DNA from: Candidatus Falkowbacteria bacterium UBA2355 | GTDB lineage: Bacteria; Patescibacteriota; Patescibacteriia; Patescibacteriales; Patescibacteriaceae | Reading direction: 5' to 3' | NCBI GenBank assembly: GCA_002344425.1 | Contig: DDTV01000037.1 | Span: forward strand, 1 to 61,491 | DNA: 61,491 nt | Part shown: positions 2,211-7,149 of the stretch, piece after piece | Layout: every line of letters starts with the position of its first letter | Position numbering within the stretch: the stretch's first letter is position 1 | Position numbers and translations under genes: made by a program | The notes under the pieces: model-generated | The model's input: the letters and a program-made list of their open reading frames with translations, nothing else | The model's database searches: none | Told to the model about the DNA's origin: nothing

Positions 2211-2705
2211 TCAGGGTTGGAATAATTCTTCCGGCTCGAACCTGACTGATTGAACGCCGTTGAATTGTTTGGCGGTGGCTTCGATTTGAGCCCAAAGAAT
2301 CGCCGCGCGGCAGGCGCCGCCGCCGGTTTTGTTTTGCGGGTCAAGGAAGCGAAGGGTTAAAACTCCTTCGGTCAAATCAAATGATTCGAGACGGACGCCG
2401 GGCAAGGGAAATTCGGTCGTAATACCTTGTTCTTTTTCCGCGGCAGTTAACTCGCCTTTAAGTAATAAATCGAGCGTGTCTTTCAGTATCGTATTGCTCG
2501 GCGCGATGACGCTCTCAACGCCGACCAGACCTTGCGCCGAGCACAAAATATTACCACTCGCGTCTTTATCTTTATCCGCAGAGTAATAGTAGAGCGTCAC
2601 TTTTGAGGCCTCGAGCGGCTCAAGGGCCTCATCAGGAATAATAACGCGGCTGGTTGAGCAGGCACTTAATAGTAAAATAAAAAAAATTAAAAAAATAAAT
2701 TTCAT
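2211..2705 (-). CDS. GerMN-domain lipoprotein
   Basis: Start re-called at ATG 2705 (MKFIFLIFFILLLSAC lipobox); LLLKGELTAAEKEQG, GGACRAAILWAQIEATAKQFNGVQSV and ELFQP GerMN-type motifs. Confidence 0.8.
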   Translation of the reverse strand: MKFIFLIFFILLLSACSTSRVIIPDEALEPLEASKVTLYYYSADKDKDASGNILCSAQGLVGVESVIAPSNTILKDTLDLLLKGELTAAEKEQGITTEFPLPGVRLESFDLTEGVLTLRFLDPQNKTGGGACRAAILWAQIEATAKQFNGVQSVRFEPEELFQP

Positions 2706-2727
2706 ATAGGGGGATATTTTTAAGTTT

Positions 2728-2755
2728 TGGGTCGTTGATGAACTTATCTTATAAT
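2728..2755. repeat. 28-bp direct repeat, copy A
   Basis: TGGGTCGTTGATGAACTTATCTTATAAT; 14 nt downstream of the stop of the 2770-3441 gene. Confidence 0.9.
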
Positions 2756-2769
2756 CAAGCATTAAGATG

Positions 2770-3441
2770 CTAGGCAGCCTGGTCCATTTCGTCGAAATTC
2801 TCGTCTATGTTATCTTCAGTTGTTTCGACTTCTTTCGACTTATTCATATATTCGACCAATAACCCGAGGATCATTTGCTTTACTTCGGGGTTAGAATTGT
2901 AGAAGATATCTTTTTCCACTACTTCTCCATGGAACTGCGATAATATTTTTTTATCTATTATAACCTCATTCCAGCAGGGCATTTTACGGAGGGTTTCGGC
3001 TAAATCATCAGTAATAGCTAGTACTGCGGGAATTTTTTCGCTTTTACCAAGAGAAAGAAATAGGTCATAGCCTCCTCGCATGGTTTTAGGAGCAAAGTGC
3101 GTCGGCGTAAATACGTTATATTTATTAAATCCAAGAATAAAGCCTTTTTCTTTATCTCCAAAGGCATATGTTTTATCCGTGCTGCCGTTTTCAAAAAAAT
3201 GTCGGATAAAGGCTTCTTGAGGAAGCGGGTCGCGTCCACGGCGTTCCATCGCGCTAGAGTACCAGGAATAAATGTCATTAACGGAGACTTCCTTATATAT
3301 TTCTTCAGTGTCTACTAAAGAAAATTCTTTAGATTTTTTTTCACTGCTTTCTTTTTCATTATTAGCCTCTAGTAGCCCTTCGTTAATCTGAGACTCAATT
3401 TCTGATTTAGTGAATGGGTTCCAAAATTTTTCATTATTCAT
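2770..3441 (-). CDS. Hypothetical protein (repeat-flanked cassette gene)
   Basis: 223-aa AT-rich ORF with acidic termini, lying between repeat copies B and A. Confidence 0.75.
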   Translation of the reverse strand: MNNEKFWNPFTKSEIESQINEGLLEANNEKESSEKKSKEFSLVDTEEIYKEVSVNDIYSWYSSAMERRGRDPLPQEAFIRHFFENGSTDKTYAFGDKEKGFILGFNKYNVFTPTHFAPKTMRGGYDLFLSLGKSEKIPAVLAITDDLAETLRKMPCWNEVIIDKKILSQFHGEVVEKDIFYNSNPEVKQMILGLLVEYMNKSKEVETTEDNIDENFDEMDQAA

Positions 3442-3453
3442 AGGTATATTTTT

Positions 3454-3481
3454 TGGGTCGTGAATCGACTTATTTTATAAC
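3454..3481. repeat. 28-bp direct repeat, copy B (most diverged)
   Basis: TGGGTCGTGAATCGACTTATTTTATAAC; aligns without gaps to the other copies and contains the stop codon of the 3470-4105 gene. Confidence 0.85.
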
Positions 3482-4105
3482 TGTAAATAAGCGGGTAGCT
3501 TTTGATAGGCATTCTTTGAAATCCTTTCCCATATCTATATAAGTCAGATTTTGTTTTTTGGCTTCTTTCCTAAAATATGAACTATAGGCCGATATCATCC
3601 CCGCGATTTTATAGTATATTCTTTCATCCTTAGTCTTTGTAACAAACCAATCTGTCGGCGAAGAATACGTGCGGGCCGATGTTACGATTTCGTTTATATT
3701 TTCACGTCCGAGAAAGACTGATTTGAGTTTCTGGTGTTTTTTCATGAGTCGTTTTACCAGCCGGGGATGGATGTGATGACCCTCGATAATGAAATTATGC
3801 TCGTTGTACGTTTCTTCGACTATGAACAACTCTATCGCTGGCCAGACGGTTTTTGCTTGGGTTATATATGCACGGGATATTTGAAGGGCAGTATAGCGAG
3901 TATACATCTTGTCATTGCTCTGTCGGGTCCTTTCCCGCAGTATGTTCTTTGGAAAGAGTTTCGGGTAGCGGTTTCGGGGGACATATCGCGAAACAATAGT
4001 TTCGAGCGTATCGGTCGAAATCCACGGTATGTTCATTTTTTTAGCCAATTGCTTGGCTAAAAGCGTCTTGCCTGACCGCGGCGAACCGCCAATAAGATAT
4101 ATCAT
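3470..4105 (-). CDS. P-loop nucleotide/2-phosphoglycerate kinase-like protein (cassette gene)
   Basis: MIYLIGGSPRSGKT Walker A, ISTD motif, FIIEG Walker-B-like strand. Confidence 0.75.
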   Translation of the reverse strand: MIYLIGGSPRSGKTLLAKQLAKKMNIPWISTDTLETIVSRYVPRNRYPKLFPKNILRERTRQSNDKMYTRYTALQISRAYITQAKTVWPAIELFIVEETYNEHNFIIEGHHIHPRLVKRLMKKHQKLKSVFLGRENINEIVTSARTYSSPTDWFVTKTKDERIYYKIAGMISAYSSYFRKEAKKQNLTYIDMGKDFKECLSKATRLFTVIK

Positions 4106-4111
4106 ACTATC

Positions 4112-4120
4112 AGTATACCA
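4112..4120 (-). promoter_or_regulatory. Extended -10 promoter, probably giving a leaderless mRNA
   Basis: Minus strand TGGTATACT followed by 6 nt and then the ATG at 4105. Confidence 0.55.
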
Positions 4121-4145
4121 AAAACAGCCCGAAAAGGCTGCTTTT
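4120..4145 (-). terminator. Intrinsic terminator
   Basis: Minus strand CAGCC-ttttcg-GGCTG followed by TTTTT. Confidence 0.6.
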
Positions 4146-4150
4146 GTGTT

Positions 4151-4178
4151 TGGGTCGTTGATGGATTTATCTTATAAT
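4151..4178. repeat. 28-bp direct repeat, copy C
   Basis: TGGGTCGTTGATGGATTTATCTTATAAT; overlaps the last base of the stop codon of the 4178-4447 gene. Confidence 0.9.
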
Positions 4179-4447
4179 TATTTTATTCCACAACAGTCCG
4201 AAGGTATTCTTTCATTTATCCGACCGTCTTCATAGAGCCCCCTTCCTTGTTTACAGGAATAGGTGACCCCAAAACAGGTAGAATTAAAACTGAGCCATGC
4301 TTCATTTTTATATTTTTTGTAGCCTAAACACCGACAGTCAGCAAGACTTGCTTCATCAGTTTGATTGAAGATGCCTGACCCGCTCTTCTTGGGGAAAAAG
4401 AACGCTACTATAAGTAGTATTATTATAAACAAGATAAACTTTTTCAT
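4178..4447 (-). CDS. Small exported Cys-rich protein (cassette gene)
   Basis: MKKFILFIIILLIVAFFFP anchor/signal; six Cys (CRC, C, C, CC). Confidence 0.7.
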   Translation of the reverse strand: MKKFILFIIILLIVAFFFPKKSGSGIFNQTDEASLADCRCLGYKKYKNEAWLSFNSTCFGVTYSCKQGRGLYEDGRINERIPSDCCGIK

Positions 4448-4451
4448 ATTA

Positions 4452-4479
4452 TGGGTCGTTGATGGATTTATTTTATAAA
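4452..4479. repeat. 28-bp direct repeat, copy D
   Basis: TGGGTCGTTGATGGATTTATTTTATAAA; 1 nt from the cupin stop codon and 4 nt from the next ATG. Confidence 0.9.
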
Positions 4480-4480
4480 A

Positions 4481-4765
4481 TTATGTGTTGCCTCTATCTA
4501 TAACAATTTCTATATCAGTCAGAGCAATTAATTTATGATATGTATTTGAAGGAATTTCGAATTTTACCGGAGCTTTAACTATTTGTGTTTCGTCACCAAT
4601 TGTTAATTCTATTTCTCCTGCAACTAAATAAATAATTTCATGATCGTCATGTTGATGATTAGCGCTAATAGATCCTTTTTTCCGAAAAATAAAATTAGCC
4701 TTACCGCAATCGTAAATTACGCCTCGTTCATCAGATTTAATAATTTTTATTTCTTCTAGCTTCAT
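4481..4765 (-). CDS. Cupin-domain protein (cassette gene)
   Basis: Start re-called at ATG 4765 because the longer ORF overlaps the tRNA; HQH...E..Y...G and IPSNTYH cupin metal motifs. Confidence 0.8.
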   Translation of the reverse strand: MKLEEIKIIKSDERGVIYDCGKANFIFRKKGSISANHQHDDHEIIYLVAGEIELTIGDETQIVKAPVKFEIPSNTYHKLIALTDIEIVIDRGNT

Positions 4766-4766
4766 T

Positions 4767-4840
4767 TGGGTGCCTAGAGGGAATTGAACCCTCGCTAACG
4801 GGACCACAACCCGCTGTTCTACCATTAAACTATAGGCACC
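4767..4840 (-). tRNA. tRNA-His(GTG)
   Basis: GGTGCCTATAGTTTAATGGTAGAACAGCGGGTTGTGGTCCCGTTAGCGAGGGTTCAATTCCCTCTAGGCACCCA; cloverleaf with G-1/C73 identity and GTG anticodon. Confidence 0.95.
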
Positions 4841-4889: not shown

Positions 4890-6116
4890 TCAAGAGTGGC
4901 GTATAGCAAAGATAGTTTTATGCGCCAAACGGATAATCGAGTGCAAGGGGCGGCGGCGATATTTTTCTTCAACTAAAAATATTACCGCAAAGACAAAACT
5001 GACAAGACTGACTACACCGGCGACGATCAAGGCCAGACTAGGAGTAAGCGAAAAGATATAACCGAACATAATCGGTCCAATAATCATAGAAAGGGCGCTG
5101 ATGGCCGACAAGGCGCCCAGGGCGCCGCCTTGTTTGTTTTCTTCCGTCTTATGCGACAAGTCGCTTATCATAGTAATGCGCCAAGCCGGTCTGATTAATT
5201 GTTCAAGCAAGAAGCCGGCTAAGAAAATTCCGTACATTGGCGCCGCCATAAACAAGAAGCACAAGGCAATCAATAGCGGAAGAATAAAAATTATTTTATG
5301 TTCATTTAACAATTTCAGCCAAAAATATTTTAAGCCCGGCGTTTGGCTAATGGCGGACAAAAAAGCCCCGGCGGCAAAGAGAACGAGGATGGCGCTGGAG
5401 GGAATATTCATAATATCTTTCATATACAGAGTGAAGATGGCGTTGGTGCCGGACATAGCCAAACCGAAAATGAACCAAGACAAATATCCCGGAATGAGTA
5501 TTTTGTGAGTTCGCAATTCTTCGCGCAAGGAAAAATTTATCCGAGTTGTTTTGCTTGTTTTGCCGCCTTCATTGGGCAGAAAGACCAGCATACATAGCGC
5601 TATCAAAGCAAAGGCGAGCGCAATTATAAAATAGGCCAAGGAATAATTTTCATTGGCAAACAAGCTGGTTGCAAACGGTGCAAAAATCGCCGAAACGCTG
5701 ATTATGGTTCCGATAAATCCCAGCATGACGGTGCGATCGTTTTGCGCGTCTTTTCCAACAACGACATAGCTTTGGACTATGGGCAAACATGAAGCCGCCA
5801 ATCCCAAGAAAAGTGCCGCGATGATAAAGTCGCCCGTTGCTTGCGCACGAGACATTAAGAGCCAAGCGACAGCGCCGGCCAAAGCCGTACTGATAAGTAA
5901 TTTTTTACGGCCGATTTTATCCGACAGCCAGCCGCCGATGCTGGAACTTACTAATAGAGAAGCCGATAAAAAAGAAAAGAATGAGGCAATGACAATGGGC
6001 GCGATATTCGCTTGGCGCGCCTGCAGGGAAACCAAGGGAGGAAACAGCACGCCCCCGGCCGCTTCAATGAAAATTAAAGAGAATAACAAAATATATGTTG
6101 AGCGGGTGATTGGCAT
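4890..6116 (-). CDS. MFS transporter (DHA1/TetA-like)
   Basis: About 12 TM segments; motif A GWLSDKIGRKK; QGGALG...IIGP in the second half. Confidence 0.85.
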   Translation of the reverse strand: MPITRSTYILLFSLIFIEAAGGVLFPPLVSLQARQANIAPIVIASFFSFLSASLLVSSSIGGWLSDKIGRKKLLISTALAGAVAWLLMSRAQATGDFIIAALFLGLAASCLPIVQSYVVVGKDAQNDRTVMLGFIGTIISVSAIFAPFATSLFANENYSLAYFIIALAFALIALCMLVFLPNEGGKTSKTTRINFSLREELRTHKILIPGYLSWFIFGLAMSGTNAIFTLYMKDIMNIPSSAILVLFAAGAFLSAISQTPGLKYFWLKLLNEHKIIFILPLLIALCFLFMAAPMYGIFLAGFLLEQLIRPAWRITMISDLSHKTEENKQGGALGALSAISALSMIIGPIMFGYIFSLTPSLALIVAGVVSLVSFVFAVIFLVEEKYRRRPLHSIIRLAHKTIFAIRHS

Positions 6117-6231: not shown

Positions 6232-7149
6232 TCAATTGCTTTTTCTGCGCTTGCCGTGAAAAGCTTGATAGACATCGCGCAGTTGCTGGTCGGTAATATG
6301 GGTATAGACCTGCGTTGTCGTAATCGACGAATGTCCGAGCATCGCCTGCACGCTTCTGATATCGGCGCCGTTCATCAATAAGTCGGTAGCATAGCTGTGG
6401 CGCATTGTATGGGGCGTTACCCGTTTCATAATTCCGGCCAGTCGCGCATAACGCGAAACAAGTCTTTCAATCGAGCGCGGCGTAATCGGGAAAAGCAATG
6501 GATTCGGATCAGTGCGGTCGGCCAAATATTTTTTTATCCAAAGTCGCGCGGTATCGGAAAGAAATACTAAGCGCAGTTTTGAACCTTTGCCTCGCACCGT
6601 AAATTCAGGTTTGTTCAGATTGATATCTTCAACTTTCAACTTAGCTAATTCGCTGACGCGCAGTCCGGTGGAAAATAAAGTTTCTAGCATCGCTTTATCA
6701 CGCAACTGTTGCAGGCCCTTGGCATGGTCTATTGGCATTTCCAAAATTCTTTCCAAATCAGAACCCTCGAGAAAATCAACTTGGCGCGGCGCCTGTTTGG
6801 CTAATTCGATCTTTTCCGGCTCAAGCGTTTTTACGTCGTTTTTAATCAGATATTTTAAAAAGGTGCGCAAGGCGATGAGGTGGTAGTTCTGCGTATTTTT
6901 TTTAATGTTGTCTTGCAAGCGCGCCGGAAGGCGATTAAGGTGGAGCCGGAATTGATGGACCAGCATTTTTGAAATCGCTTCAGGTTTCGCAACGCCGCGC
7001 TGGCGGGCAAAATCAGCAAAGCGCTTGAGAAAGAAACCGTAATTTCTTAAGGTGAGATTGGACAGGCCGCGTTCGACTTCGAGATATTCCAAAAAATCCG
7101 TGATGGCGCGGTCGAGCTGATTTATTTTTTTGGCGGTTTTCTCGCTCAT
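6232..7149 (-). CDS. XerC/XerD-family tyrosine recombinase
   Basis: N-terminal SAM-like domain (FLEYLEVERGLSNLTLRNY); catalytic residues in TGLRVSE, RGKGSK, HTMRH, LGH and TTQVY. Confidence 0.92.
   Translation of the reverse strand: MSEKTAKKINQLDRAITDFLEYLEVERGLSNLTLRNYGFFLKRFADFARQRGVAKPEAISKMLVHQFRLHLNRLPARLQDNIKKNTQNYHLIALRTFLKYLIKNDVKTLEPEKIELAKQAPRQVDFLEGSDLERILEMPIDHAKGLQQLRDKAMLETLFSTGLRVSELAKLKVEDINLNKPEFTVRGKGSKLRLVFLSDTARLWIKKYLADRTDPNPLLFPITPRSIERLVSRYARLAGIMKRVTPHTMRHSYATDLLMNGADIRSVQAMLGHSSITTTQVYTHITDQQLRDVYQAFHGKRRKSN

Follow-up and report, generated by a model that had tools for sequence, protein, structure and literature searches.

Judging from the parts of the literature cited below, the closest known systems to the gene array described here are the tandem ssrA islands of Dehalococcoides and the staphylococcal cassette chromosome (SCC). 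The array is located in a contig of 61,491 nt (DDTV01000037.1, referred to as the window) from Candidatus Falkowbacteria bacterium UBA2355 (GCA_002344425.1), whose 753-kb genome, G000, is assembled in 38 contigs. It is built of four small, unrelated genes that lie behind a tRNA-His gene and are delimited by four copies of a 28-mer repeat. It is probable that these repeats are attR scars of modules inserted in tandem at the 3' tip of tRNA-His by a large serine recombinase (LSR), the enzyme likely coming from an element that is no longer present at the locus. SCC/Ccr composite islands, grouped with the att sites of large serine integrases, are presumably a kin system.

Comparison with Known Systems

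According to the available account of the Dehalococcoides ssrA islands (PMC3146451), these also stand in tandem behind a small-RNA gene, their DsiB is a CcrB-like serine integrase of ~540 aa whose gene reads on the reverse strand and has its 3' end at attL, the target repeat has a conserved non-target motif upstream of it, and 15 islands are without the integration module. The target there, however, is the tmRNA, cut in the T-loop with a 20-bp repeat, whereas here tRNA-His or tRNA-Gly would be cut at its last bases, 4–6 of which are shared. In addition, the modules of the present system may be as small as one gene (0.3–0.7 kb) whose stop codon is part of the site, and several arm families occur on one tRNA. 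With tRNA-His as target and a shared core of 4–5 nt, the array falls outside the ssrA-GI family, which is defined by an ssrA target, a 20-bp repeat and a six-gene dsiB module.

As far as the attP and attB sites of the Listeria A118/LI integrase are described in PMC3783163, they resemble the present sites in half-site length, in the position of the outer motif, in a 5-bp shift that is matched by junction family B/D, and in the very short shared core. Unlike in the LI system, most modules here have either no right-hand half or a variable one, and the target is a tRNA gene. Integrative and conjugative elements, integrative and mobilizable elements and cis-mobilizable elements (CIMEs) accrete at tRNA 3' ends by successive integration at one site, and their decayed, integrase-free members keep the att sites, which is similar to the situation in the window; but these elements and the Islander tandem arrays at gene ends have tyrosine integrases and longer target duplications, whereas the modules here are gene-sized (PMC5704250, relevant sections). 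The window's first 12 kb contain no copy of the tRNA-His end of at least 10 nt, and the array contains no integrase, which sets it apart from Islander-type islands. Conjugation genes were not noticed in the array, no search having been aimed at them.

The array has in common with integrons its polarity, the mostly one-gene modules, the 3' site that often holds the stop codon and the likely expression from an upstream promoter; its gene-plus-site units are all in one orientation, as is typical of integrons. It is an instance of integron-like gene collecting, but one that lacks both IntI and attC. In agreement with the earlier note on this DNA, which had called the array integron-like in spite of these absences, the neighbouring recombinase scores 130 bits against the IntI model TIGR02249 (cut-off, 265 bits), with the match in two stretches, and the 28-mers fold at 0 to −3.2 kcal/mol and share no stem with their flanks, so that no attC-type hairpin is present. 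Also unlike integrons, the array is anchored at a tRNA end and is likely served by a serine enzyme acting from elsewhere. The dif/pdif modules of Acinetobacter, as described in part in PMC12907356, likewise have 28-bp sites between small clustered modules. The pdif sites, however, are of the 11-6-11 type with two inverted Xer arms, whereas here there is one Xer-like arm, the copies are all direct and the crossover would be at the end.

Structure of the Repeat and Point of Exchange

On the minus strand, the order of the genes and sites is xer, tRNA-Arg, a gene of the major facilitator superfamily (MFS), tRNA-His, cupin, site, 89-aa protein, site, kinase, site, 223-aa protein, site, and GerMN (Table 1). 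The four ungapped copies of the 28-mer start at 2728, 3454, 4151 and 4452, with spacings of 726, 697 and 301 bp and one shared orientation, exactly as given in the earlier note. Its further observations were reproduced as well: between successive copies there is exactly one co-oriented (minus-strand) gene each, encoding 89, 211 and 223 aa, and every copy lies on or within 14 nt of the upstream stop codon. The gap between stop and site is 1 nt for the cupin gene, which sits between tRNA-His and the first copy (4452), and 14 nt for the 223-aa gene; the 89-aa gene overlaps its site by one base, and the stop codon of the kinase gene is inside copy 3454. The G–C content of the array is 37%, compared with 44% for the genome; 2.5% of 1335 equal-sized windows have so low a value.

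A weight matrix made from the four copies scores these at 39–44 bits and the next best place in G000 at 13.9 bits; with a matrix made from 30 copies, only the same four exceed 10 bits. The repeat, which had not been seen elsewhere in the window, thus has no further copy in the whole genome, and a motif scattered upstream of housekeeping genes is ruled out.

Read on the gene strand, the site comprises TTATAARATAA, three variable bases, CATCAACG and then ACCC(A), that is, an arm of 23 nt followed by the 3' end of tRNA-His. The AC dinucleotide is kept in 28 of 30 sites. The sequences behind the 32 sites collected from this and other loci are of the same classes as those behind tRNA-His: a near ATG was found in 7/32 and a shared hairpin, by patterns written by hand from examples, in 16/32. 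In particular, relatives have the hairpin family that occurs with a −10-like motif at 4112–4140 of the window behind tRNA-His as well as behind many of their sites. Two other studies yielded contigs that align to the window at 98% and 100% up to and including tRNA-His; the matching ends at 4764 and 4767, and the 95 and 30 contig letters beyond do not align to the window. Because tRNA-His ends in ACCC(A) too, the followers are shared, and strains diverge at 4764/4767, the point of exchange is, to judge from the sequence comparisons, at the 3'-terminal bases of tRNA-His, which correspond to one end of the repeat and not to its middle.

Distribution of the Site and Turnover of Cargo

The site was found in 9 out of 20 genomes of the genus, with 23 matches (reversed control, 0), and the same search found none in the 21 genomes of other genera in the family. 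It is located behind tRNA-His in 8 of 19 genomes of the same genus. Within ~13 kb behind xer lie 21 of the 23 matches; one more (G005) joins a tRNA-His array via overlap with locus L051, and the last, with three mismatches, is elsewhere in its genome. Nine further loci from contig databases carry the site and were left out of the counts. The order xer, tRNA-Arg, tRNA-His is conserved throughout the genus and also in some further families. In contrast, what lies behind tRNA-His is different in each genome of the genus that was compared (12 loci with long flanks; several further contigs end too near), so the cargo, the comparison of which the earlier note had proposed, is wholly different between relatives rather than identical in order. 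No matches to the site or to the C/Gly arm and no relative of the LSR were found in viral contigs. An exact match in a Sphingobacteriaceae chromosome (L053) was discarded as a chance occurrence inside secE.

All of the 32 sites in 16 regions lie on one strand: 25 on that of the tRNA and seven, those of the metagenome locus L052, on that of the genes, against which they were judged as this locus has no tRNA. A co-oriented stop codon is located at −15 to +12 in 25/32 sites, compared with 3.2% of random places, and 12 sites supply the stop themselves. The seven copies of L052 occur within 8 kb and include five near-identical site-plus-hairpin blocks with counterparts at 84–94% identity in G018 and G008, which favours, without proving it, that the junction may be carried as a unit.

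None of the window cargo was found in other genomes of the genus, except for a homologue of the 223-aa gene. Homologues of this gene are present in 5 out of 250 other genomes of the order. The one in G118 is bounded by tRNA-His-end junctions of another family, those in G245 and G235 lie within ~1 kb behind tRNA-His, and no tRNA-His array context was seen for those in G012 and G065. In G005, a kdp-like potassium-transport operon of ~6 kb stands between two sites and is followed by a malic-enzyme-like gene (L051/L063, G005:C10:1-6300). The description of the array as one of single-gene cassettes is therefore accurate for the window and does not hold as a rule, since a module in relatives may contain several genes. 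Site-specific, tRNA-anchored capture at a non-attC site, as proposed in the earlier note, is supported by these data, and shuffling, i.e., reordering within the array, was not borne out.

Two side observations concern the same loci. In L051, A-type and B-type junctions stand in tandem with no gene between them. GC-rich palindromic inserts resembling repetitive extragenic palindromes are found behind some sites (L032, L035) and some tRNA-Arg genes (L031/L032).

Large Serine Recombinases at tRNA Ends

Matches to LSRs were found in 171 of the 301 genomes of the order, and a tRNA gene lies within 1.5 kb at 25 of the best 30 LSR loci. In G015, an LSR with Resolvase, Recombinase and zinc-ribbon domains is located directly behind tRNA-His, and one degenerate and then two good copies of the window's site follow the element. 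The four LSRs at 35–40% identity to that of G015 (G050, G231, G120 and G126) are all at tRNA-His; no match to the window's site was established at the right ends of their elements. The nearest LSRs, 52–53% identical (G241 and G109), are at the end of tRNA-Gly. Each of their elements begins with the tRNA end, followed by 10 bases and TTTATAAA, which places an inverted TTATAAA at mirror distance, and closes with a 23-base arm starting with TTTATAA, then the tRNA end. The site of the window is a 23-base arm that starts with the outer motif of these arms.

At the G015 element, and likewise at a module of G008 that has no recombinase, the opening consists of ACCCA, 11 bases and TTTATAAA; openings of the G015 type behind tRNA-His were found in G008, G178 and G183. 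Joined around the shared core, arm and opening make up 47 bases, the outer motifs being inverted and the central base being the first one shared with the tRNA, in the tRNA-His and the tRNA-Gly systems alike. The opening pattern occurs in 11 of 300 genomes of the order (reversed control, 1), at tRNA-His in four, at tRNA-Gly-type ends in six and elsewhere in one; an LSR adjoins it in two. Both element ends surround plain cargo with no LSR in G170, G210 and G245, and in G210 the stop codon is inside the arm. Matching arms at both ends are thus present in G015, G008, G241, G109, G170, G210 and G245; the four modules of the window have no opening arm.

Further junction families in tRNA-His arrays (at least B/D, C and E) also place ACCC 23 nt from the outer end. 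With the spacing left free, this distance was recovered for 19/32 motif matches of family A, 11/23 of C, 8/15 of B/D and 4/6 of E, and most of the remaining matches have no core within 45 bases. Families B/D, C and E are often mixed in one genome (L035, L036, L037, L039, L041, L147, L148).

The outer block of the site occupies positions 24–16 from the crossover. In the LI model, as outlined in PMC3783163, the zinc-ribbon motif has the same positions within an attP half-site of 25 bp. The first bases of family B/D are GTTC (24–21) and tRNA-His has GTTC at 19–16, an offset that corresponds to the 5-bp attP/attB shift of that model. By analogy, the geometry of the window's site fits that of a putative LSR attP half-site (~25 bp, outer motif at 16–24, dinucleotide core shared with attB).

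A parallel array system is found at tRNA-Gly beside the tmRNA gene in other families (L137, L138, L140, L111, L112), with LSR-carrying as well as LSR-free modules; these arrays are the cleanest case of this kind for bench work. Separately, on the plus strand each of the window's copies (2728, 3454, 4151, 4452) reads W-V-V-x-x-x-I-L-stop in frame, and the LSR frames of G241 and G050 run across the tRNA end. An origin of the arm in the last codons of an integrase could not be confirmed; the LSR of G015 ends ~60 nt short of the junction.

Proposed Mechanism

From these comparisons we infer the LSR assignment and the mobility of the modules. The 23-nt arm would represent the P half of attP, its outer block being the candidate zinc-ribbon motif and its inner block the contact of the recombinase domain. 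The cut would be made at the AC shared with the tRNA, and tRNA-His, of which no more than the last bases would be exchanged, would thereby stay intact upon insertion. Newly arriving modules would enter beside the tRNA and displace the older ones outward. Expression of the cargo may rely on read-through from the tRNA, where ACCCA is closely followed by an ATG, or on a block of terminator plus promoter that heads the module. As the modules of the window have no opening arm, they are presumably either trimmed remains of larger elements, comparable to CIME accretion as summarized in PMC5704250, or the product of a reaction that ignores the right half.

The second of these options can tentatively be extended to a serine-recombinase integron, a version that we regard as possible and rather doubtful. 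Gene-sized cassettes with a left-half attP would circulate as circles among Patescibacteria and be inserted in trans by tRNA-targeting LSRs; the newest would be expressed leaderless from the tRNA transcript, and several LSR families would feed one tRNA-His array. If LSRs ignore the sequence to the right of the cut, any tRNA end would stay reusable.

Several results weigh against LSR insertion as the origin of the repeats. No cognate LSR was found on the 38 assembled contigs of G000. Its only resolvase-family gene (C28:2683-4223) is 26% identical to the tRNA-His LSR and is located at tRNA-Gln, which this LSR gene overlaps tail to tail; the far end of its element was not found on the 6.8-kb contig. 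The exact site family is tied to an LSR in one genome; this is G015, whose element is followed by a first junction with a 2-nt insertion. The second tie (G008) is a module with an opening arm but no LSR. The inverted TTATAAA is missing from all four window modules, so that their present form cannot be the product of a textbook attP × attB reaction, and the two arms have just their outer 7 bases in common. Depth is low (4.1 and 2.5) for the two contigs that part from the window behind tRNA-His. Neither excised circles nor empty-site joints were present in eight contig sets (contigs only, some possibly from the source samples), and four contig sets possibly from or sharing the source study contained no joints or variants; uncovered stretches in low-depth runs were not scored as absence. 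Sites further from the tRNA were not significantly more decayed (Spearman −0.29, p 0.14, 27 sites). Finally, a near ATG behind a tRNA is common in G000 (16/45 tRNA genes), so that its occurrence behind tRNA-His says little alone.

Alternative Explanations

The earlier note had likened the repeat to a Xer dif site and pointed to the neighbouring tyrosine recombinase, which was confirmed at ~1.4 kb from tRNA-His, as an enzyme to be tested on the array. Each repeat would then be an 11-6-11 Xer site through whose centre genes enter. The recombinase scores best with the XerC/XerD/XerA models, and its named homologues belong to Candidatus Falkowbacteria and Patescibacteria. In favour of this reading, it is the only PF00589 gene of G000, the site is 28 bp long, its central bases are the most variable, and one 11-nt arm resembles a XerD arm as given in the earlier note. 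However, the alignment of 30 sites has a single TTAT-type arm with no inverted counterpart, and the crossover maps to the terminal ACCC; recombination in the centre would have either disrupted the tRNA or placed tRNA sequence in the arm, and neither was seen. While xer was matched in 57/61 genomes, including site-free ones, the site is restricted to one genus. Two skew switches were located in the closed genome G011, from − to + at 20–47 kb and from + to − at 490–517 kb, as estimated from 22 sampled stretches that cover under half of the genome, and the locus at 128 kb is ~370 kb from the latter switch. No skew inversion was detected within the window, and a search of G000 for a separate dif by palindrome and arm likeness gave no convincing site. 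A position away from the terminus does not by itself exclude Xer, because Acinetobacter has extra dif-like sites elsewhere. LSR elements or junctions also occur at tRNA-His even with no adjoining xer (G126, G183), and the parallel tRNA-Gly arrays are bounded by arms of the same build. The dif comparison is thus not upheld, the evidence points to an LSR instead of the neighbouring enzyme, and dif-like modules moved by Xer appear quite improbable.

An insertion history of the same kind could also be due to another integrase targeting tRNA-His, for example a tyrosine integrase, with the arm as an accessory sequence and modules that were never mobile themselves. Tyrosine-integrase elements do lie directly behind tRNA-His in G011 (L038) and G004 (L040), and a degenerate site is found at the far end of the former. 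That 14-kb element, however, closes with a copy of at least 22 nt of the tRNA 3' end, the usual signature of tyrosine integrases, compared with 4–5 shared bases at the present sites, and G000 has no such integrase; we consider this explanation unlikely. Two tRNA-His end copies of the at-least-22-nt type were observed in G014. It is very unlikely that the site is a non-recombinational element, either a processing or termination signal at transcript 3' ends in which the tRNA end is mimicked, or an antisense promoter or operator. Although the site is always at gene 3' ends, often with a hairpin behind it, and two of the four copies end with TATAAT on the opposite strand, it is absent from all other genes of G000, has no hairpin or Rfam match of its own and was not picked by the promoter scan; nor would such a role explain why strains vary from the tRNA end on or why the arms are common with LSR elements.

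Features of the Array and Genome Context

The features of the array are listed in Table 1. The earlier note had counted the GerMN gene among the array genes; it is indeed next to the array, but it lies beyond the last site, and is an older flank rather than a bounded module. Protein-atlas searches gave no usable matches to the 223-aa and 89-aa proteins.

Table 1. Features of the tRNA-His array and of its surroundings in the window.
Feature	Position	Strand	Remarks
GerMN lipoprotein gene	2211..2705	-	Pfam Germane; beyond the last site, no site at its 3' end
Site copy 4	2728..2755	-	Weight matrix; distal end of the array
Module 4 cargo, 223-aa protein of no assigned function	2770..3441	-	Homologues in 5/250 other genomes of the order, three of these in tRNA-His arrays of another family
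Site copy 3	3454..3481	-	Weight matrix; most diverged copy
Module 3 cargo, P-loop kinase, 211 aa	3470..4105	-	NCBIfam 2-phosphoglycerate kinase-like, E-value 4.6e-12, below cut-off; stop codon from site copy 3
Hairpin (4125-4140) and extended −10-like motif (4120-4112)	4112..4140	-	Head of module 3; putative promoter
Site copy 2	4151..4178	-	Weight matrix
Module 2 cargo, 89-aa Cys-rich protein	4178..4447	-	Hydrophobic N-terminus; no family match
Site copy 1	4452..4479	-	Weight matrix; 23-nt arm (4479-4457) and ACCCA
Module 1 cargo, cupin, 94 aa	4481..4765	-	Pfam Cupin_2, E-value 1.3e-10; 30% GC; ATG 2 nt behind the tRNA
ACCCA, 3' end of tRNA-His	4767..4771	-	Putative crossover region, AC dinucleotide at 4771-4770; common to the end of every site
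tRNA-His (GTG)	4768..4839	-	ARAGORN; array anchor, 3' half the putative chromosomal target arm (attB half); relatives likewise have a tRNA-His behind xer and tRNA-Arg
Xer-type tyrosine recombinase	6232..7149	-	Model scores; 1.4 kb from tRNA-His; neighbour that probably does not serve the array

The slot between tRNA-Arg and tRNA-His (4890–6116 in the window) also varies, holding the MFS gene here and a 179-aa gene in G008, G012 and G004, and being empty in others; homologues of the MFS gene are found 13–14 kb further out in G018 and G001. The near ATGs counted genome-wide in G000 are those of ORFs of at least 70 aa within 15 nt downstream of the tRNA gene, a habit that suggests leaderless messages, possibly released by tRNA processing.

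Implications

In 2014, serine integrases were stated as not known to target tRNA genes (PMC4383910, Islander, passage on integrase types); against this statement, 25 of the best 30 LSR loci in one order adjoin tRNA genes. A term count of a large survey of LSRs (PMC10083194) found no occurrence of the word tRNA in its main text, and the available portion of PMC12884075 describes no tRNA-targeting array of this kind. A literature search, at the level of abstracts and with few subscription papers, found no description of such arrays; TIGER-type survey databases or supplements may already list such integrases. Arrays like this would escape tRNA-island finders, which depend on a tyrosine integrase together with a long fragment of the tRNA, as well as integron finders, which depend on attC. 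If the proposed reaction is true, an LSR that needs one defined half-site per partner would be of interest as a tool.

Patescibacteria have tiny genomes and large variable gene pools, and the routes by which they gain genes are poorly known. The tRNA-His locus offers a defined target, a defined site and a candidate enzyme for one such route, which may be tested in Escherichia coli.

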